A DNA stretch of 36,038 bases from Basidiobolus ranarum (Eukaryota): NCBI GenBank assembly GCA_040143965.1, contig JASJQH010000060.1, forward strand, positions 1 to 36,038. The letters are read 5' to 3'. The notes under the pieces are model-generated. The model made no database searches and was not told where the DNA came from. It saw only the letters and a list, made by a program, of their open reading frames with translations. Both the position numbers and the translations under genes were made by a program. This document shows positions 1 to 36,038 of the stretch, piece after piece; the first letter of the stretch is position 1; each line of letters begins with the position of its first letter.

Positions 1-564
1 GTTTGGGAATGATACTATATTAATACTTGGTAACTGGTCGGCTGGAAATGAAAAGTATCATGAGCCCAATAGAGGTGTCGGAATGAGAAAAATGTTAGCC
101 AAAGAAGGCTTCCAGCTATACCTCCTTGACGAGTTTAAAACTTCAAGTCTGTACCTACTTGCCAGAACGGTGAACTGGAAAAGTTTCGAAAAGTACAAAA
201 TCCTAGACCATACAAAAGAGAAAAGTATCCTATTGGCTATCGTCACGGCCTTTAAACGCTTTTTATATGCAAGTAAAAAATTCAAACCTGATTTCTGTTC
301 TGGTGTAAAAACCAACAGTGTTTAAAGGTTGCGGCCAATACTACTGAAGATTTTCCCCTTCGTCTTTGGAATTGTGACCTGGCTGCTACTTTGAGCTTTA
401 GGCATATCCTTTTTAACTTGCGCCCATATGGGGAAAGACCAGAACGTTTTTGCAGATTGAAGGAACCTCTCTCCACCGGGTATAAAAGAAAGAGTATCTC
501 GTCAGCTAGCAGCAGTCGACCAACTCAAAAAGCAAACAATCCTGTGTGGTTAGCGCTACACTAA
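1..564 (+). pseudogene. C-terminal part of a decayed Fanzor (eukaryotic TnpB-like RuvC nuclease), 5' part outside the window
   Basis: Manual translation. Frame 2: FGNDTILILGNWSAGNEKYHEPNRGVGMRKMLAKEGFQLYLLDEFKTSSL. Frameshift at ~152-154, then PTCQNGELEKFRKVQNPRPYKREKYPIGYRHGL. Stop-rich intron-like gap at 253-303, then CKNQQC...RLWNCDLAATLSFRHIL...GERPERFCR...TAA (562-564). G[D/N]WS, DEFKTSxxCPxC, HGLLRC and WNRD-like motifs recall the RuvC/zinc-finger C-terminus of fungal Fanzor proteins. Confidence 0.85.
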
Positions 565-1606: not shown

Positions 1607-2873
1607 CAAGATATCATTATCAGGTGCATGTATTTTCTATATCTTGCCAATATGGAACACTACTCGCAGTCACTGTAACTTCACAGTTGGATAACTAATA
1701 GCCGGCACAACTTCACTTGCCCTGAATATTTATTAATCAGCCATGGCTCTATATCCCAAAGTAATTCAATTGATCGAACATGTGTTTATATCGCTAATAA
1801 TCATATCAAGTGTCTGATTATCATGATATCATTAGTAAATATCTATATAGAAACAAGTGCTCTACTAAGGCTTATTTGTAGTATATTATATTAGGGTTAC
1901 CAAGTCAAGAGTAGGGAATTCGGATATGTATTGGATGTGTGAGCAATATATTGGATCAATTAGCGATCACATACAAAATGGTACAGTGAACGAATTTAAT
2001 TATTTAGCATGTAGCAAGGAGAGAGTTAGGTAGAAGTCCCAGAGTGACAGGGATCGACTGTAAGTATTGCTTATTACCAGCTTATTGCTTCAATACATGT
2101 TGTGTCCAATGTATGGCTTCAACACATGTCGTGTTCAACAGAGTCAGGGCTTATCTTTAATGACGGTAGAAGTTTTTTCCGGGAGTGGTACAAAAAATGA
2201 AAGCCACAATATCCGCTCCATGTTCCGGATATTAAGTCAAGATTCAGATATTTTTCAGATTCCCATATGTGCCAAAGTTGAGCCAATCGATAACGACCAT
2301 TGAATCTGACCTGTACCGAAAGTTCGACTATGTAGCACAATTCTTGAGAAAAAATCCACTTTGGTACTAACAATGGCAATATCAGTTGGGTGTGAGTGCA
2401 AGTGCAAGTGGCAAAGTGAACGAATCTTGGTGGAATTGATTAAACTTCTTTTCATGTGATACATGATCGGATAGTTGTAGGAACGTATGTATTGGAGCAT
2501 ATATTGGAGCACATATTGGATCTACCAACTCCCCACGATCAAATTTACCACTATTGGCTGAGAGCCAGCTTTATGTCGTCATATAGTGAATGGTGATTTG
2601 CGTAGGTTTGACGGAATTTTTAGAATGTCATTGGATAATATGCCTGAGTAAAGATAAAGAGGTTCCTTTAAAAGGCGCCTGTGGGATGGCATGTAGCGCT
2701 TAACCCCGCTATCCCCTCGATTTTCTTTTAAAGTTTAGTTGTGTTGTAGTAAAGTGAGGACTGATCTTAATACATATCTTGACCAAGAAACTGGTCCAAT
2801 AACGTTCAACTAAATATTGTACGAACCCACCTCAGTTTGCTATTCATTTTCCAACACATAACGTTATAGAGCA

Positions 2874-5247
2874 ATGACTGCACCTATCATTCAGGGACTC
2901 TTTCAGGGCAGAGAGTTGAATCTTCTGAACATAGCTAAACGCCATTTTCCATTTGGCGTTTGGATCACTCGATACAATCGAAAATGGTTGCTAGGGGATG
3001 TCATTGCAGGTATCACAATTGGTATCATGCTAGTCCCACAGGTTAGTGGAACTTGAATGTTTAATCTTGTTGAGTTGTAATAACTGAGAGTATTTGATTC
3101 TCCTAGGCACTCGCGTATGCGCAGCTAGCGACGGTACCTGTTCAATACGGACTTTATTCCTCATTCCTTGGGATTGCTATCTACTGCCTCTTTGGTACAT
3201 CTAAAGATCTTTCAGTAGGCCCGTCAGCAGTCCTATCCTTGTATATAGGTGTTGCATTAGAGCCTCTGGTATCCCAGGGCTATGATCCTGTTCAATGCGT
3301 CATAACTATGTCGTTTTTAATCGGCTGTTTTTCTCTTGGGCTGGGGATCTTCAAGCTTGGCATTGTTCTTGATCTGATTTCTATCCCAGTCATCAAAGGT
3401 TTTACTGCGGGAGCTTCGGTTACCATTTTCTTCAGTCAGGTGAGATTGCCAATTGAGCTGTACTAGCAAACTATGTAATTATTAAGCAATGGATTTAATC
3501 TGTAGGTTACCTCGTTGCTTGGAATCACTGGCGCCAAAGCACAAGGCCCCATAATAGATGTCATCAAGGCAATTGTCCAGGCACTTCCACGAACAAGGTG
3601 GCAGGATGCTCTTGTTGGATTTAGTGGTATTGCTATGATGATCTTCCTCAAATGGATATCAACCAAATTCAGTCACCTTCATCCCGCTGTTAAAATGATT
3701 GGGATTGCTCGCAGTGCTATTTGTGTGATATTCTTTACTTTGGTCGCTTTTATCATAGCAAAAGTGCAAGGTGAAGGAGTGGTTACTCTTGTAGGAACTA
3801 TTCCCACTGGATTTCCGGATCCTGCTGTGCCCCGGTTAGATCCCGCATTCCTTTCTCAGATCGTCGGTCCATCAGCCATAGGACTTATTGTGGCCATCAT
3901 TGAACATACCGCATCTGCCAGAACCTATGGTAAGATATATAATCACTAAGATGCATTTGATCTATCACTAACATGTCTTTTCTCAGGTCGTTTGAATCAT
4001 TACAAGACTGATAGCAGTCAGGAGTTCGTTGCTGTTGGCGTATGTAATATAATCAACAGTTTCTTTAGTGCTTTTCCGGTTACTGGTGCGTTATCGCGTA
4101 GTGCCGTGATTTCCCAATCTGGGGTTAGAACACCAGCCAGTGGAATTTTCACCAGTGTGGTAGTGATGCTGTGTTTGAATTTTCTACCACCGGTCATGTA
4201 CTTTGTCCCAAAACCAGTGCTGGCTTCTATCATTATGGTCAGCATCATTCCGTTGATATGTGGATACAGTGTGTACAAGGAGCTATGGGTGATTCAAAGT
4301 AACAAAGTGAATGTATTCATTCTCTCAGCTTTATCAAAAACTAACTTCCCATTCATCTAGAATCCGATATGATAGCTTGTCTCTTAGCATTCTTAGTGAC
4401 TATATTTACCAATATCCAAACAGGCATTGAGGTTGCAGTTGGTTTCTCTCTGTTAATCAGCTTACATAGAATAGCTAGACCAAAGTGGCAAATGCTTGGA
4501 GAGGCGGTTGAAGAACCCGATGTATATGTGGATAGATGGTCAAATGACTGGGCCACCTATCCACCACCTCCAGGAATCATTATCTTCCGATTCTCTGAAT
4601 CCATTACTTTCTTGAATGGAGAGTATTTCAAGAATAAAGTGATGAATGCCGCATATATCGCTACCGAGCCAGCAGAGAAATCAGCGGGTTCTTGGGGAGA
4701 GCGCGTCTGGTCTGATGATAGAGATTCTCGTATTGGCCGCATCCGGAATACATTCAACCGACGCCTACCCCCAAATGCAATGACACGACCAGGTGAAATG
4801 AAAATCAAAAGAGTTAATACCGCTGATAGTACCTATGACCGCGAGCATTCCCAGAGTCACATTCCAATCGAGATAAATGGAGAGAAGACAGCCGAACTTC
4901 CGACTTTACGAGCAGCGATTCTAGATTTTAGTGGAGTGAATCAAGTAGATTTCGCAGGTTTACAATGCTTGCTAGACTTGAAGTCACAGCTTACCGATTA
5001 TGCCGGGAATCATGGGTTCGAACTTCACTTCGTAGGGTTAAAATCCAACGTGTTGAGACGTATTGAACCTTCGGGTATTACTAAACACCCAGATGATGGA
5101 CCAGAGGATAATCACCGTTACATTCATATTAGTATCAAGGATGCGTTGAAATGTATTATGGAAGATTGGCATCATCAGACATATCTACCCCCACCTGACC
5201 CAGTCGAGAAGCTCGAAGATATGAGGATTCACATGCATCAGGCCTAA
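2874..5247 (+). CDS. SulP/SLC26-family sulfate/anion permease with C-terminal STAS domain (about 5 exons)
   Basis: GDVIAGITIGIMLVPQ|ALAYAQLATVPVQYGLYSSF, QEFVAVGVCN, FPVTGALSRSAVISQSGVRTP; STAS motifs IIIFRFSESITFLNGEYF and AILDFSGVNQVDFAGLQCL. GT-AG introns at approximately 3042-3106, 3440-3505, 3929-3986 and 4307-4360. Confidence 0.93.
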
Positions 5248-5719
5248 ATTATAAGATGTTAATTATTATATCCCTCTAATATGTATTAGAATCCTAATTT
5301 GAATTACACTATGGCTAACTTGTGTTGAATCCCGCATTTCTTCCATTCATATCTTTCTTTTTATACACACGTGGGTTTACAAGTTAAACGAAATAAGGTT
5401 CATTGTTTTCTAGTAAAGTATCTCATTATAAGCCTCCCTTTTAACCTTAAAGGATATAGACATATGGTGTGAAAATTGCGCCACATAGGCCAGAATTTCC
5501 ATTTAATCTCTCAATGCTGGGCCTTGTTGTAACCCTAAGCATATGTCAATGAATGTTACTCTTAACTCCCATCATATTTACCAGTACCATAGAAACAGGA
5601 TTACTGCATATACATATATATATAGCCTGTTCACGTATTTACCGAGAAACATTCAAACCTTTGTCACCTCATCGTAGGACAAAGTTCACTTCAATATTCA
5701 TTTGTTGATTTGGAATTAT

Positions 5720-6620
5720 AATAATAAAAAAATGGGATCAGCTACACTATTGATATCTTATTGGTAATTCAACGCGCAAATTTCTTACTTGGATGAGCTT
5801 GAGCAATTGAAGTAGAGACGGGAGAGCGAACAGCAAGTACAAGGAGAACCTTATAATGACGGCATGCAAGTTGCTTCCATCATTCTTGAAGCTGCTCAAT
5901 CCCTATTCTAACGACTTTCACTCAATTATGCTGATTCTAGTTAGATATTTGCTAGAGGACTCTATTGAGGGTTGGGTTTTTCCGGTTATGACAGTGACCT
6001 AAGATCCCTTTTATGAGAGTTTAGAGTGGCCAAAAAGAGATCATAAAAACCCACTCGGAGTGGGGGAACTGGGTTAGCAGTTACCCGTCATCACCACACC
6101 TACCCCCAAAATATCTTCAGTTCATCAGTAGAACCCTCAGCCTCCTTACTTCTTAGGTTCCGATTATACACTCGCAAATCTCACCAGGCTCACAACTAAG
6201 GCCTATCTTCCCGGTGAAGATGGCAGGAGCAGAAGTGAAACGACAATAAGTGAAATCAGATCCGTAAAAAATGAGAAAAACCAAGAGATCCTTCCAACTT
6301 ACTTCCAACACCTTGGAAAAGAGTCATAAACTCTAAGTAAGAGCAGTTCGACACACACTTAGGGTTAAGTATCAAATACAACGCCAAAGGTTATCAAGCC
6401 TAAACTTGGTTCCCCTTTGTTTTTTGCGAGGTACCTTCCACTTAAAATGATCAGACCGTCGTTATCCCGTGAAACCGTCAATTTCTTGACAATGAAAAAC
6501 TTCGCCCTCAATAGAATACTTTGTTAACTTACGCAAAAAGAATATCATGGCTCCACAGCCTAGTCTGTAGCGTCCCACAAAAAAAGGACCGCACCCGCCG
6601 CGCGTCACGAGTTATAGCAG
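5720..6620 (-). ncRNA. TER: Candidate telomerase RNA (~0.9 kb); ends approximate
   Basis: Minus strand, in order: terminal helix 5' strand (6578-6526); core-enclosing helix (6517-6494 with 5982-5959; 6480-6474 with 5995-5989); template UAACCCUAA (6367-6359); pseudoknot GAGUGG-GUUUUUAU-GAUCUCUUUU-UGG-CCACUC-UAAACUCUCAU-AAAAGGGAUC (6056-6003); three-way junction (5897-5828); terminal helix 3' strand (5782-5732); U-rich tract (5732-5725). Most helices contain G-U pairs that work only on the minus strand. The ORF track shows no ORF here. Confidence 0.82.
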
Positions 6621-6647
6621 CCAAAGAACCACTTTAATCCATGTAGC

Positions 6648-6655
6648 TATTTATA
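6648..6655 (-). promoter_or_regulatory. TATA box (TATAAATA) upstream of the candidate telomerase RNA
   Basis: Plus strand TATTTATA at 6648-6655, about 70 nt upstream of the first strand of the terminal helix. Confidence 0.55.
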
Positions 6656-6924
6656 CCTCTGCTCATTTGTTTTGATTTGAATATAATGACGAATTAAATT
6701 TGATTGGATTGATAAGACTTAGATCAGTGTATATGCACTAAGAAAAATAAATGTATCATTCAATAGATTTTTATATATACCCTGGGGGCATATCTTTCTG
6801 ACGTTGATGGTATAAACATGACAGAGAGGAAACAAATCACTACCTTCACTCTACTGAAAGCGAACATTCATCCTCTTTCTGCTATAACCAGCACAATACT
6901 TGACTTCTCAGAGGGAATTTACCT

Positions 6925-8514
6925 ATGGAGCAGTCGGTAATTGATACAGTAAAGATCTTGATGTAATGGGTATATTAACACTCCCAAGTCTCTATTTTCC
7001 AATGGCTCGGAAGACAAGGATTTTGATAGTGATTGTACGGCAATATCCGACCCTCGAACGAATCAAATCAATTTAGGTGAAGAAAAAAGGCCGAGTGCTC
7101 AGACGAAAAAAAGGATTCTGGTATGTAGCAAACAATTTGGATGAAAATTACATGTAAATAATCAAATACTTTCAAACAAGTCCAACAATAATGCGATTAA
7201 ATCCATACATAAACGATACCTTTCGTTACCTCTATTGAGAAGTGCACTCAAAGACTCCGAGTTGAACACTATTAGAGAACACGGGTCGGAGGATCTGGAA
7301 GTTTCGGATAATCCAAACTCGGTTGAAACTCTTGAACAAGAGCTATCCACCGAAAACACTCATCAAAATGAAGAGATTCCAACAGGAAATATGGGTCTAT
7401 TAAAAAACAGAGTCCGTGAATTTGACGCGCTTTGCTCTGATATGTTGTTTACTGCTTCCACATATCATCAGAAATATGATCAATATAAATTGGATTTTAA
7501 TCAACAACAGCAAGATTTTTTCAACGATTTAACTACAAAATTCAAAGAAATGCCACTTGAGTTGGGTAACTCTTTATCGGAAGAGATAGGTAAAAATACT
7601 CGGATACTATGACTCTTGAATCCCAACTTATGCCATGATATAGTAAACATGATCAATACAAAGATTCAAGCTATTCAAACCAATGTCAAACACCAGCTAG
7701 ATCTAGAGTGTACTCGTACAAAAGAACAAATCACGGTTCATTTATTATACTTGCAATCCAACATCAACAGTTACTAAGCTCTTTATTCTAGCAAATTACA
7801 GATCAACTAAATCAACTAACACAATATTTCGAGAAGTTTAATGAAAAGTACTTGGACATGCTGGTAATATTGAAAGGTTGTAACCTACTTTGACTTTCCT
7901 TTCATATTCACTTCATATGATGTAGTCCAACCAGTCTGCTATCCAAGAAACTTTAAATCGACTTCGTCATACAGCACAATATCCAATATTTAGTAACAAG
8001 TGAGTGAAACAGCCTCAGATATGTGAACTTATTTCAAAACTAGATCAAATTACATACAGCAATTATCCATTGTTGAATCAGTTGCCCTCTATTGCCTTAA
8101 CTGATTTACAACATCAAGGTGTGTTAAGACAAAAGTTCAATCACCACTACATATCAGATGTTCATTTAGTATAGTTTTTATTGAAGAGATGACTTCAGTC
8201 TCTACCAAATCCTCAACAATCCATAACTTGGCTGAAGATAAATGTCCCAGTGATAGAGAGAATAGTAAGTAAATGAAGAGATTTCATAGATGCCAGGCTG
8301 TACATCATAATGAAAGGCTTTTCTTTAGTCACACGAGAGATATCTGTCTCCTCGGAGTCAACAGTAAGAAATAGGAATGATAGTTTGAACAAGATCAAAT
8401 CCGAAACTTCAAAGAAACGGACTAAAGTAAGCGTTTGTTTCATTAAGAATAAATGATTCATAGTCTCTTGGTTAATTTCTACACTTTTAGAAGCGTCGAT
8501 TATTGATCACTTAG
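6925..8514 (+). CDS. Multi-exon hypothetical protein with central coiled-coil region and basic C-terminus
   Basis: Exon chain with GT-AG introns: MEQS|SLFSNGSEDKDFDSD...KKRIL|SNNNAIKS...EFDALCSDML...SLSEEI|VNMINTKIQAIQTNVKHQLDLE...|QITDQLNQLTQYFEKF...|...SETSKKRTK|KRRLLIT*. Exon structure between 8000 and 8300 is uncertain. Confidence 0.6.
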
Positions 8515-8629
8515 TGTTTTAATCTAAAATAAGACGAATTTAAAAAATCAATTAGACATTTCATAAAATAAATGGGACAATCGCAAAAAATTCGAGAAAA
8601 GTGAAGTCACATGGCAAAAGAAATAGTGG
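8512..8629 (-). mobile_element. Second, inverted copy of the Fanzor-element end (solo remnant)
   Basis: Ungapped manual alignment to the reverse complement of 591-708: 103/118 identical. Begins TAGTGTTTTAATCTAAAAT versus CAGTGTTTTAATCTAAAAT. Weaker gapped similarity continues to ~8658. Confidence 0.85.
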
Positions 8630-27286: not shown

Positions 27287-30250
27287 TATTCCTGGACCAT
27301 TCATTCCATCATTCGGTTTTACTAACCCAAAGTGTATTACTGACGGTAAATAGAGATGCTCGATCAACCTGCCCCACACCAGCTTAAAGGGTCCATGATG
27401 AAGTAAGACACGCATTCTTCTTGAGGATAAACTCTTTGTAGAATCCAACCAAAACCTCAGTGCATTAAATCCAGGATTAAATATAAACATATATGGCAGA
27501 ATTCTCCATACTTGTGAGAAAACCATGATAGAATAATGTGGATGTAAATATACTTGGATGTACATATCACTCATCTTCATCTTCACCTGCACCTGCACCC
27601 AACCCCACTCAACAATCGATTACGAATATGAATACGTAGGATATCTGTTCCTCTAATGATCAATTGGCTGAGGGGTGAGAAGATGGTGAGGAAAGGGCCA
27701 CCTTGTCTGTCACACAAACTTCAGTACCCGGTTTTTAGTCTAGATGGACTCGCTTTTCTTATAGTACCCTTAGGCAGCTAACTTCGAGTCATTTTAATGT
27801 ATAAAAATCAATTAGATGTGGTTAGTATGTGCGCATAGTGTCTAGGATGGCCTCCGAAACCAGAAATGACCACGTTTGAGTAAACAAAGAGAGTGATGTA
27901 ACATCCAATATATTGTTGGTGTGAATGGCTGAGGACATAAATGGTCTTGAAAAATAGGGGATGGGATCCTGAGGAAATTTGGGGGCAGCTTCAAGGCAAG
28001 TGGTCTGATTCCTAGGTAACAGCGTATGGCCAGATTTCGTAGTAAAATTCACACATCTCATCTCACCAAGCTTATTGATCAACATTGTGTAGCAAGCAAG
28101 ACCATTCATTGTAACTCCTCCAGGTTGAATCAACACCATCTAAATGAGGGCCGAGGCACAACCCAGCTGACTTCTCATGGCTTTGATGGAAGCCGATACT
28201 CATAGATCTGTCTGCTCCACATTGGCCAAGATTCAAATAGGAGTAAATTCTTACAAATAGTTAGTAATTCGCCAACCTTTGGTTCTAGACACATTCCGTG
28301 GAAAGCAACTAGTCGTCATATTATCAAGCGAAAGCGAGCTGAATGGACGATCTGCATTAAAGATGAGACAATATTTACTTAATTTCCCGAAGATCAGAGA
28401 TTATTCGATTAGAAGGGTTTGGTAGAAGAGTAAGCCTGCACTTTGACTAATGTAATATAGGCAGCCCTATACGACGTCGCAGTATGAATTCTAATGGGCA
28501 CAGATGATACATCAACAATTGGCGTCATCCCGAGAAATCCTCGGTGCCCCCTAGACAATGAGTTGATATGCAAACAATCAGCAGTCACGATATGGTAATA
28601 GTAGTAATCAGCAAGTCGTGATATGGTAATAGTAGTGGCAGTAGTAGTGACAGTGACATTAATGACCTTGGACCCACTGAGTGTCAGTGGCGTGACAATA
28701 ATGGCTATTGACTTGGTGGGTTCTATTCTTAGATTCCAGGGAAAACTCTCTTTGATCAAGATGAGATCCGAAATAGTTAAATTGGGTCAGAATGAATTAT
28801 CCCCAATCTGAGGCGTAACCTTTGTATTGGTTGAGGTGGATGACGAGAACAGAGTAGTATATATATGATGGTAGGCACTATATCAGCTGATAGTATATAT
28901 ATATAGGTATGTGTATAATGAAAAGACCGTACAAATCAGTGCCGATATCGCCACGTTCTACAATATCAATAAAAAATGACAGTGGAAACGAAACCACGCT
29001 GAAACATTGTCTCGTATAGCCTGTCATCCAAGTCCCAGTCCACCATAATTCGTCTATAATGGTCGGTGTGGCAGCTGAGTTAGGAATAGTTATCTGGGCA
29101 CAAGTTTAAGGTGCACTTTACATGCAAGAAGCATTCCAAACAAAGATTCAACATTGGATTGGATGTCGGCTACTTATCTCCGGTTCCTGAACGAATTCAA
29201 TGGATTAACATGGCTAATTAGACTCAGAGGACGATTGATCCTTATTTTGGTTAGTTGGTGAGGTCGGGGCTATAGGGATATTAATGTGCTCAGTATAACG
29301 TAACTACTTTCCTGGAAGATAATATCCTCGATTGGAGTAGTCTACATCAGTGGGTGGTGAGCAAATCATTTCTCTGGAGAGAGTCAACATTAATGCAGGC
29401 GAGGTGTTACCAGAATATTGGTCGAGTGCTTCGTCTGTATAGAAAAACTGCATTGAAGAGTAAAAGGGGTATTTGCCTTATCCATGGGTGGCTATGAACC
29501 TATACTCTAAGTGACGGCTTATAGGATTGAGTGATTCAGTGCATGCAGGCTATGATGAAGTGGCCAAGCTTTTGTGCCTACCAAATGGTAGAGTTGGCTT
29601 ATTCTGTCTACACTTAGGGTTAGGGTGGTTTTAGACTGGAATCCGCGCACTTGCTTTGATTTATACAATAACAAACTGGAATACCCACCTTGATTTATTC
29701 AATAGCAAATGAAGAATGTGGGAGAGGGAATATGAAACCCAGCCACAATTTCAGGTTATGTTGATTGGTGATGTCAAAAGAGGCCTTCCCCAACTTTTCC
29801 AGTCGACATGGTTACATTCAATAATTCTTACCTTCCAACTACTCTAGACTCTAAATTCAGAAACAATTCACGAAAAAAAAGCAGATTCGAAAGAACATAT
29901 TTCCGGTTTGCATGGCTTAGCTGTCCTGTAATAATGATTACAAGTGCCAACTAACAACAGAGATAAAGCGGCCTCACGTGCCTCGTCTTTTGAGAAAATC
30001 CAACTGGCAACTAGGATTCGAATGAAGAATGCAAGCTGAACATCGCCGCTTGTTTATATTGATCGATGCAGATAGTGTTCTGGTTTATTTCCTGGTTTGA
30101 AGGGTCGAGATAAGTATTCCTTACTCAATTTTGAACAGCATTAATATGGAAATAGATATTCATTAAGCAACTCTCATGTCACATGACTTCGGCTATTTCC
30201 ATTTGGACTATCCTTCTAGGGGTAGTAGACAATGGGCAATCGATTTGGGA

Positions 30251-30452
30251 AATAAGAAATGGGAATAAGAAATGGCAATAAGAAATGGGAGATGGCTTAA
30301 TATCAACATGACGAAGGTGTAAGGGTTAGGATTGAGTAGTGATGGGAGCGATATGAAAGGTGATGATTAGTGACGATGATTAGTAGCTACAATGCTGGCT
30401 AGATTAATGCTGGCTAGATTAATGATGGCTATCGACGCTGGCTAGATTAATG
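30251..30452. repeat. Two short minisatellites: AATAAGAAATGG x3 (30251-30288) and AATGCTGGCTAGATT x~4 (30391-30452)
   Basis: Read directly from the sequence. Confidence 0.8.
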
Positions 30453-33889: not shown

Positions 33890-36038
33890 CTACTTCGGGT
33901 TATTTTCATTCGCATTGCTAATTGTCTGCGTAACCTCATCTTTATCATTCACATCTGGGATCTTTTGACTTGTTTCTGAGCTGTTCGTATCCTGTCCTAC
34001 TTCATTAGCTCCCTTCGTATTTTGTAACGTCTCCAAGTCATGATTAGTACCATCAGCTACAGGAGAATAAGAGATTAGTTGATTGGATATTATTCTCCTC
34101 TAGAAATAGCCTCAATTACCAGTTTGAGATGAAGGCGAACCTTCGTGTGTCTGTGCATGATTTCCCTCGTCCTTACTTGAATTCTGTTTGACAGCTTTGG
34201 GTGATGTTATTGTACCAATGGAATCGTCAATCTGTCCATTAAGAATATTTTCACGTTCTCGACGAAGTTCATGAAGTCTACTAAGTGATTTGAATAGTTC
34301 CTGACGCTGATACTTTTGCTTCTCATTTACTAAAGCCGACTCAGGATTGTTTTCGTTAATGTTCGGCAAATCGATCTTTGACGTTTGAGGACTTTCTTTG
34401 GTAATGGTAGGGGATGAGGTTGATGAATTGGTTGATTGCCCACAATTTTTCGGATTTTCTGATAAGGGTGAAGATACTGGTTCATCATCAAGTATGATTA
34501 CTGGCTGGGTATTATCCACAGGAGTTTGATCAATTATGCCTTGTTGAGATTGTTGTTGTGGTGCTTGTTGTTGGAGCGGTTGTTGTGGCAATTGATTCTG
34601 CTGCGACTGTTGCTGTAATTGTGATGATTGTCGCTGTGGTGATTGTATCTGTGGGGATGGCTGTTGTGGCAATTGCTTCTGTGGCGGTTGTGGATGTGGT
34701 TGTTGTGATTGCTGTGACGATTGTTTCTGTTGTGACTGTTGTTGTAGTGATTGTTGCAGATGCCATTGGAGTTGTTGTTGTGAAGGATGTTGTTGTGGCT
34801 GTTGCTGTAGTGAATGTTGCAACGATTGTTGGAGTTGCTGTTGGAGTGAGTTATTCAACAATGGTAACGGGGGGCGTTGCTGCTGAAGATATTGCTGTTG
34901 CAATTGATGTACCTGCTGTGGGCTCATCTGATTTAAGAGATATTGTTGCAATTGTCTCAATTGAGTTTGTTGAGTCTGATTCAAGTGTGGAGCATTCTCC
35001 TGAATTTGCTTCTGTAAATATTGATGGAGTATTTTTGCTTGTTCTTGACGATGTGCACCTGAAGTTTGGTTGTTCTGTATTTGGTTTAATAGATTTTGCA
35101 TTTGTTTCAAATGATTTCGCTGCCTTTCAGCAGCTTGTAACTGCTTTTGTTGCGGCTGATTGGAATGATATTGTTGCATTTGCTGTAGCAGAGCATGCTG
35201 TACTTGGTCAGGGAGTGGTTTTTCAGCCTGTGCTTGTTGAAGTTGGGAGACTTGGAGCTGATATTGTTGCATTTGTTTTAATTGCTTTTCTTCGGCTTGC
35301 GCAGATCCAGATGGATTGGGGTTCATTTGTTTTATAAGGTGTTGTAGTTGATTTAGTTGAGCTCTTTGAGCCGACTCTTGCCTTGACTGATACTGCATCT
35401 GATTGAGCTGTGCCATTTGGGCTTGGGGTGAGTTTTGTTGATTTAGATTTGGTAAGGACTGATTATAATTCACCGGTCTAAAGTTGTGCTGCGTTTCCTT
35501 CGACTTATCTAGCCGCTGTTTGTTTGCTTGGGGTTGGTTGACAAAAGTTACAGGACGCTGAGGAAATTGCGACGCACTTGATTGAAAGTTGTGAGATGTG
35601 GAGGTATTGAATGCTAGGTTCGGGAGAGAGGCGGCATGAACCTGTTGAGGAGACCGATAGGTAGCAGCGGATGCCGATGAGCTAGGCAAAGAAGCAACGT
35701 AGGTTTGCTGTGGAGATTGATAAGCATTAGTAAGCTTCGATGAACCAGGCAAAGTACCAATGTGAGTCTGTTGTGGGGATCGATAGGCAACAGTAGGCAT
35801 TGTTGAACCAGGTAAAGAGACAAACTGGGTCTGTTGTGGAGATCGATAGGTAGTAGATGTCGTTGACCCGGGTAGAGAAGGGACATGACTCTGCTGTGGA
35901 GATCCAAAAGCAGTTACTTGTGAAGTTGAGCCGGGCAGTGAGCCAAACTGAGCCTGTTGTGGAGATCGATAGGTAGTAGATGTCGTTGACCCGGGCAGAG
36001 AAGGGACATGACTCTGCTGTGGAGATCCAAAAGCAGTT
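33890..36038 (-). CDS. 3' part of a glutamine-rich low-complexity protein with 20-aa tandem repeats (5' end outside the window; final exon uncertain)
   Basis: Open frame from the window end to ~34119, then a GT-AG intron and an exon ADGTNHDLETLQ...NENNPK*. Extensive Q-rich tract. Confidence 0.75.
35620..36038 (-). repeat. Coding 60-bp tandem repeat (~7 units in the window) with a 120-bp higher-order period
   Basis: Units align line by line (60 nt). 35834-35918 is nearly identical to 35954-36038. Peptide consensus [YF]xSPQQxxxxSLPGSxxxxx. Confidence 0.92.

Follow-up and report, generated by a model that had tools for sequence, protein, structure and literature searches.

A possible cis-acting anti-template downstream of a candidate telomerase RNA in Basidiobolus ranarum

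A 20-nt element on the minus strand at 5549–5530 of a Basidiobolus ranarum (Zoopagomycota) contig is complementary, without interruption, to the template of a candidate telomerase RNA encoded upstream on the same strand (~6620–5725) and to the 11 nt that follow this template. Positions refer to the window, i.e. the whole stretch of 36,038 bases that was analysed. The complementarity is real and non-random. An earlier note, made from the sequence alone, had proposed that a 3′-extended precursor could use this element, referred to here as the anti-template, to mask its own template until 3′ processing. The proposal was sustained in part: it is favoured by the anatomy of the host RNA, the complementarity itself, the position of the element outside the mature RNA and the predicted energetics of pairing, and it is weakened by a rival, insertion of telomeric sequence by telomerase, which receives some support from a second telomere-like site at 29614–29622. 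We consider masking of the template in cis to be coherent, plausible and unproven, with a probability of roughly 40%.

Complementarity between trailer and template

The pairing between 5549–5530 and 6367–6348 was recomputed, and the 20 contiguous pairs claimed in the earlier note were recovered. The antiparallel duplex comprises 16 Watson-Crick and 4 G-U pairs (–27.7 kcal/mol, RNAduplex) and is exactly 20 long because mismatches lie immediately on both sides. The 3′ half of the anti-template, UUAGGGUUA, represents 1.5 telomeric G-strand repeats, while its 5′ half, UUGACAUAUGC, is complementary to the 11 nt after the template, and the complementarity stops exactly at the template 5′ boundary. 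All four departures from Watson-Crick pairing are G-U on the minus strand and become A-C on the plus strand, as can be seen in both arms and as had been noted before; the longest perfect stretch on the plus strand is 10. At the DNA level the two arms are identical at 16 of 20 positions, and the four differences are all transitions. The element lies 177 nt beyond the U7 tract (5732–5726) that approximates the mature 3′ end, in agreement with the ~180 nt given earlier.

To place these values against chance, all same-strand pairs at most 1500 nt apart were scanned across the window. The only minus-strand run of at least 20 was 5549–5530 with 6367–6348, whereas the plus strand gave three, two of them in a GT-rich low-complexity coding repeat. 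No other minus-strand sequence in the window pairs with the template 20-mer over 13 or more contiguous positions. Although the 11-nt tail, GUGUGUGUCGA, is promiscuous and rich in G and U, it finds, with G-U pairs allowed, only 5 other partners on the minus strand and 4 on the plus strand, per ~36,000 positions each (~1.3 × 10⁻⁴ per position). The shuffle test suggested in the earlier note was then carried out with dinucleotide shuffles of the trailer (5724–5300, 425 nt) against the 896-nt RNA. Of 1000 shuffled trailers, 5 formed a run of at least 20 with some part of the RNA, and the duplex energy of the template 30-mer (–29.2 kcal/mol) was reached in 0 of 500 (shuffle mean –17.3, sd 2.5, best –27.1). 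Given the single minus-strand run, the frequency of partners for the tail and the two shuffle results, pure coincidence is unlikely, on the order of 10⁻³ to 10⁻⁵ by look-elsewhere counting in what is a post hoc test. The pairing, which continues 11 nt past the telomeric 9-mer, is strand-specific and statistically unusual, and the view that it is more than a stray telo-box was upheld.

Candidate telomerase RNA and its precursor

The RNA that contains the template is predicted to be highly structured. The minus strand of 6620–5725 has a minimum free energy (MFE) of –283.2 kcal/mol (z –7.2; none of 20 shuffles matches this stability), compared to –229.5 kcal/mol (z –4.2) for the plus strand. Minus-strand regions of equal length around the other TAACCCTAA sites, at 29614 and 1891, fold no better than shuffles (z +0.93 and +1.28), and these two sites were rejected as the true template. 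The template UAACCCUAA corresponds to 1.5 repeats of TTAGGG, the putative host telomere repeat. In the mature-length fold, 6364–6353 are unpaired, with a probability of 0.59–0.83 per nucleotide, and a hairpin predicted from the single sequence (6445–6365) abuts the template and overlaps its first 3 nt, where it may serve as a template boundary. The topology of the pseudoknot (Table 1) was assigned by eye; an MFE fold cannot draw it and pairs 6055–6051 with 6063–6059 instead. The U tract reads A-U7-A at 5733–5725, and no G follows it; a G usually follows an Sm site.

Fungal telomerase RNAs are described as containing a template, a boundary element, core-enclosing helices, a pseudoknot with a U-rich loop, and a three-way junction with short P6/P6.1 (PMC3592445, available part). 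The candidate RNA is predicted to have these vertebrate/fungal core parts in the expected order, and we consider it likely, on the strength of the modelled fold, to be telomerase RNA. Unlike that core, it has no sequence similarity detectable by Rfam, and its P6.1-like hairpin departs from the described consensus of a 4-bp stem with a NUNGN loop (PMC3592445, available part): the stem fits, whereas the loop is a 4-nt UUCU. The literature searched describes no telomerase RNA of Zoopagomycota or Basidiobolus, and nothing relevant was found there for Mucoromycota or chytrids; a Lichtheimia paper mentions only a doubtful ciliate-like telomerase RNA candidate.

We hypothesize that the minus strand at ~6620–5725 encodes the B. 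ranarum telomerase RNA, probably as a polymerase II transcript whose mature form ends at the U7 tract after the terminal helix, and that the primary transcript probably extends into the 478 bp that separate the RNA from the convergent permease gene. Such a transcript would carry UUGACAUAUGCUUAGGGUUA ~177 nt beyond its mature 3′ end, and this element would pair with the template, single-stranded otherwise, and with the next 11 nt. The resulting 20-bp helix, of pseudoknot type, would occupy the template until 3′ processing removes the trailer, and the anti-template would in effect be a TERRA-like template ligand supplied in cis. Possible roles include blocking premature use of the template, guiding folding, and marking unprocessed RNA. 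The identity of the RNA as telomerase RNA, transcription as far as 5530, formation of the helix in vivo and its functional relevance are the parts of this scheme that we infer.

The anti-template is not part of the structured mature RNA but of the trailer, which is otherwise unstructured. An AUUAAA at 5507–5502 is located 23 nt beyond the element, and a polyadenylated precursor ending there would therefore include the anti-template. No convincing 5′ splice site was found beside the U7 tract when the sequence was inspected by eye with the permease introns as a guide; an AUAAUU at 5717–5712 merely resembles AUAAGU. Because a nested fold cannot represent the pairing, its energetics were estimated from opening energies and the duplex energy. 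Freeing the 20-nt arms requires 7.9 kcal/mol in the core and ~10 kcal/mol in the trailer, compared to –27.7 kcal/mol for the duplex, and a precursor with both 20-mers open plus the duplex reaches –351.0 kcal/mol, versus –336.1 kcal/mol for the unconstrained nested MFE. Pairing is thus predicted to be favourable by 9–15 kcal/mol before any pseudoknot entropy penalty, provided that transcripts reach 5530.

Several observations weigh against masking. Nested folds of precursors with a 3′ end at 5500 or 5400 assign the pairing between anti-template and template a probability of 0; the reason is that it crosses the enclosing helices, not a lack of strength, and a nested helix imposed by constraint costs +9.1 kcal/mol. 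The nested form being unavailable, the helix must form as a pseudoknot. When the trailer is folded alone, a 10-bp hairpin at 5542–5514 sequesters most of the anti-template, and the fold of the trailer is itself unremarkable (z +0.16 on the minus strand, –0.85 on the plus strand). Upstream of the element, the 245-nt trailer has the (UA)n tract and four GUAA motifs (background 5.2 per kb); if these serve in termination, as they may, transcripts would end before 5549 and the anti-template would be left out of the precursor. The window holds 4 copies of the 9-mer TAACCCTAA where 0.25 would be expected, a 16-fold enrichment, and none of 100 shuffles attained this number; the 9-mer alone therefore proves little. 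One of these copies, at 29614–29622, has a 5-base flank complementarity to the template 3′ flank, where at least 5 is expected at ~0.03 per site; flank complementarity may therefore reflect how the sites arise and not masking. The identity of the host RNA is also affected. Searching the whole window against Rfam at the gathering threshold gave no match, and a search of 5000–7300 with E up to 10 only a chance miRNA match, a blank that is unsurprising in so divergent a lineage; the UUCU loop lacks the conserved G of the NUNGN consensus; and TTAGGG is only putative as the B. ranarum telomere repeat.

Competing explanations

The flank complementarity at a second site leads directly to the rival of telomerase insertion, in which the TTAGGGTTA sites are short interstitial insertions made by telomerase at breaks annealed beside its template, and the flank pairing has no present function. 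Each of the three non-template sites in the window holds exactly TTAGGGTTA, a one-round copy of the 9-nt template, and their G-strand 5′ flanks pair with the template 3′ flank over 11, 5 and 0 contiguous positions. The end of the complementarity at 5530, exactly at the template 5′ boundary, is also what a telomerase product would show. Telomeric repeat insertion at break-repair sites is documented in vertebrates. However, an 11-nt duplex between primer and flank far exceeds the microhomology that telomerase usually needs, and it would take a coincidence of ~1–4%, at the site density of the window, to place such a site on the sense strand of the RNA gene and less than 1 kb downstream of it. Only three sites were examined, and an origin by insertion is in any case compatible with later use of the element. 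We take this explanation seriously but regard it as unlikely. Should it hold, the flank complementarity would be a footprint of telomerase at internal breaks, and residues 3′ of the template would take part in primer alignment.

Equally unlikely, in our estimate, is a function at the DNA level, where the 9-mer would bind a Myb-type telomere-repeat factor of the Tbf1/Teb1/Tay1 kind and serve, between the converging genes, as a roadblock or terminator; the 11 further nt would be fortuitous or belong to a longer DNA consensus, TAACCCTAAG(Y)(R)T. Tbf1 and Teb1 act as transcription factors on TTAGGG (PMC12449055, available part). The enrichment of TAACCCTAA described above fits such an element, as do the continuation with G of three of the four sites, two of which share TAACCCTAAGTGT, and the location of the site near the middle of a 478-bp convergent gap (permease stop at 5247, RNA 3′ end at 5726). 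On the other hand, the two other telomere-like sites are in likely promoter regions, whereas the copy at 5530 is flanked by the 3′ ends of two converging genes, a difference that counts in favour of masking. Even if the first four flank positions are granted to the motif, the other seven would pair with a chance of only ~2 × 10⁻³ (from base frequencies), and a DNA motif does not predict that 4 of 4 differences should be G-U on the RNA-sense strand.

A more basic objection is that the RNA is structured but is not a telomerase RNA, so that the supposed template is another telomere-like 9-mer and the pairing an ordinary long-range inverted repeat. The blank Rfam search, the departure of the P6.1-like loop from NUNGN, the putative status of TTAGGG and the lack of any Zoopagomycota telomerase RNA in the literature for comparison all speak for it. 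Against these stand five independent architectural features in the expected order around an unpaired 1.5-repeat template, a z-score of –7.2 on the correct strand only, and the unstructured sequence in which the other telomere-like sites lie; we consider the objection quite improbable.

Least probable of the four, and in our view very unlikely, is a neutral relic of an inverted DNA copy, produced by template switching between inverted telomere-like 9-mers and followed by four transitions: the 16/20 identity of the arms with transitions alone agrees with it, and decay through wobble pairs only would not be very improbable (~0.06–0.1) as the copied flank would be C/A-rich, so that a transition leaves 9 of its 11 positions paired, but the homology ends at the 20-mer (best gapped flank alignment 12.5, versus 12 for the 20-mer alone), the telomeric 10-mer carries 0 substitutions against 4 in the other 10, and a spacing of 800 bp is long for replication template switching.

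Other candidates were rejected or disfavoured. A polymerase III transcript ending at U7 would have to pass 7 further U runs of at least 5 inside the RNA. A plus-strand template at 5530–5538 in the permease 3′ region, Ustilago-like (PMC9564094, available part), is not favoured: the predicted plus-strand fold is 54 kcal/mol less stable, and on that strand 4 A-C mismatches interrupt the pairing of the 20-mers. A piggyBac-like miniature transposon (TTAA with CCC... inverted termini) has TTAA on one side and GTAA on the other; 5300–6700 is without similarity elsewhere in the window (best E 0.056, AT-rich repeats), and a boundary at 6367 would cut an RNA whose halves pair with each other. Finally, a metagenome scan with a degenerate 20-mer for both arms returned 1 match, located inside a coding region of an unrelated prokaryote-like 2-kb contig and therefore a chance match.

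Locus, precedents and implications

The features of the locus are collected in Table 1.

Table 1. Positions of the candidate RNA, its trailer and associated features in the window
Feature	Position	Strand	Remarks
Sulfate permease gene	2874..5247	+	four exons; converges on RNA gene
Candidate telomerase RNA body	5725..6620	-	ends approximate; ~850–900 nt
Candidate TATA box	6648..6655	-	TATAAATA; ~30–70 nt upstream of structured RNA; putative, from sequence
Terminal helices	6578-6523 with 5773-5732	-	predicted fold; U7 directly after
Core-enclosing helices	6494..6517 with 5959..5982	-	13-bp 6517-6505:5971-5959 and 7-bp 6500-6494:5982-5976; also an inverted repeat
Candidate template boundary hairpin	6365..6445	-	6445-6439:6371-6365, 6436-6431:6379-6374, 6419-6414:6390-6385, 6408-6404:6399-6395
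Template region	6348..6367	-	TAACCCTAAGTGTGTGTCGA; template UAACCCUAA 6367-6359, 3′ flank GUGUGUGUCGA 6358-6348
Candidate H-type pseudoknot	6003..6056	-	topology by eye, single sequence
Pseudoknot stem 1	6056-6051 with 6029-6024	-	GAGUGG with CCACUC; from sequence
Pseudoknot U-rich upstream loop	6050-6043	-	GUUUUUAU; from sequence
Pseudoknot stem 2	6042-6033 with 6012-6003	-	GAUCUCUUUU with AAAAGGGAUC; in MFE fold; four U-A pairs
Candidate three-way junction	5827..5898	-	P5 5898-5891:5834-5827; P6 5884-5877:5862-5855
P6.1-like hairpin	5854-5849:5844-5839	-	AUAAGG-UUCU-CCUUGU; stem fits
U7 tract	5726..5732	-	directly after terminal helix; candidate Sm/Lsm site, approximate mature 3′ end
Trailer	5480..5724	-	mature 3′ end to just past anti-template
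(UA)n tract	5625-5606	-	in trailer, upstream of anti-template
Anti-template	5530..5549	-	TTGACATATGCTTAGGGTTA; 20 contiguous pairs with 6367-6348
Local hairpin	5514..5542	-	AUGCU-UA-GGGUU / ACAACAA / GGCCC-AGCAU; trailer folded alone
TAACCCTAA site	1891-1899	-	likely promoter region, ~1 kb upstream of sulfate permease start
TAACCCTAA site	29614-29622	-	likely promoter region, upstream of cyclin-like gene; two repeats, TTAGGGTTAGGG

A distance of 283 nt separates the end of the permease stop codon (5247) from the anti-template. The 292-residue exon of this gene (4369–5244) is 100% identical to a 707-residue protein named 'Sulfate permease 2 [Basidiobolus ranarum]'; a paralogue (71%) is present on another B. 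ranarum contig, and a relative in B. meristosporus has 64% identity. A 117-nt inverted repeat, 88% complementary (591–707 with 8513–8629) and stretched to ~150 nt by gapped alignment, flanks the 8-kb segment holding the permease gene, the candidate telomerase RNA and the next gene; its arms may be two copies, in opposite orientation, of a small dispersed repeat. The third-longest minus-strand run, of 18 pairs (5 G-U), joins 6847–6864, upstream of the candidate TATA box, to 6501–6518, the 5′ strand of the core-enclosing helix, and would rival that helix only if transcription started far upstream.

Among the telomere-like sites, the one at 29614 is part of CCCTAACCCTAAGTGT, with 13–14 nt common to the template region. 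Both this site and that at 1891 have AATAAGCC within the next 10–14 nt, and the 9-mer together with AATAAGCC may form a two-part promoter motif. Upstream of the cyclin-like gene there are also two tandem arrays, of GGAAATAAGAAATGGGA (30248–30290, three copies at 13-nt spacing) and GCTGGCTAGATTAATG (30394–30452, three copies, all identical). The window further contains a myosin-motor chitin synthase and, at 34112–36037 (minus strand), a very glutamine-rich open reading frame that runs past the window end; its 63-nt tandem repeats encode a repeated ...YRSPQQ...SLPGS... unit, and its GT-rich antisense strand gives long G-U 'duplexes' in the background scan. At the opposite end, an open reading frame truncated by the window start (2–325, plus strand; FGNDTILILGNWSAGNEKYHEPNRG...) is transposase-like in appearance and has no Pfam match at E up to 0.01.

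Among known systems, for which the comparisons draw on the available parts of the papers cited, the nearest functional analogue of the proposed masking is TERRA, a UUAGGG-repeat RNA that pairs with the telomerase RNA template and inhibits telomerase in trans (PMC2943627). The anti-template contains UUAGGGUUA and would occupy the same template nucleotides. TERRA, however, is a chromosome-end transcript that acts in trans and through repeats alone, whereas the element described here is a single 1.5-repeat copy beside the RNA gene, would act in cis in the precursor, and has a complementarity that covers a further 11 nt of unique sequence beside the template.

By analogy, precedent for functional telomerase RNA 3′ trailers that are cleaved off comes from two systems (PMC4800423, PMC11250828). 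In Saccharomyces cerevisiae TLC1, a CGCGCG palindrome lies 37 nt past the mature end, in the cleaved-off 3′ trailer; like the anti-template it is confined to the immature 3′ extension, and it affects telomerase biogenesis and telomere length (PMC4800423). Unlike the anti-template, this 6-base self-complementary motif is tied to RNA-RNA association and is not template-complementary, and compensatory mutants of the palindrome failed to rescue (PMC4800423). In the human exL precursor, a triple helix formed only by the 3′ extension governs processing and quality control. The template takes no part in it; the elements involved are the terminal UUU, box H and the H/ACA domain, and the extension measures ~10 nt, compared to ~200 nt here (PMC11250828).

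Fungal telomerase RNA precursors can also be processed by spliceosomal cleavage, at a 5′ splice site 0–27 nt after the mature end (PMC4299874). These precursors and the one proposed here would have in common polymerase II transcription and a long trailer beyond a U-rich Sm/Lsm site at the mature end, the trailer in theirs consisting of an intron and a second exon; in contrast to them, there is no convincing splice site at that position in the B. ranarum sequence, and the available part of the report describes no template-complementary element for their trailers (PMC4299874). Searches of titles and abstracts for template, precursor and sequestration likewise found no anti-template acting in cis in a telomerase RNA.

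If masking occurs, the B. ranarum RNA would be the first telomerase RNA to mask its own template in cis. We tentatively propose, at somewhat less than even odds, a zymogen-like RNA in which the precursor would be inactive and 3′-end maturation would license the template. This would tie 3′-end processing directly to catalytic competence, and would give a simple answer to how immature telomerase RNA is kept from TERT or from chromosome ends. The locus also provides a well-defined candidate telomerase RNA for Zoopagomycota, for which none was found described in the literature searched, and such an RNA would help to place the vertebrate-like core of pseudoknot and three-way junction at the base of the fungi.

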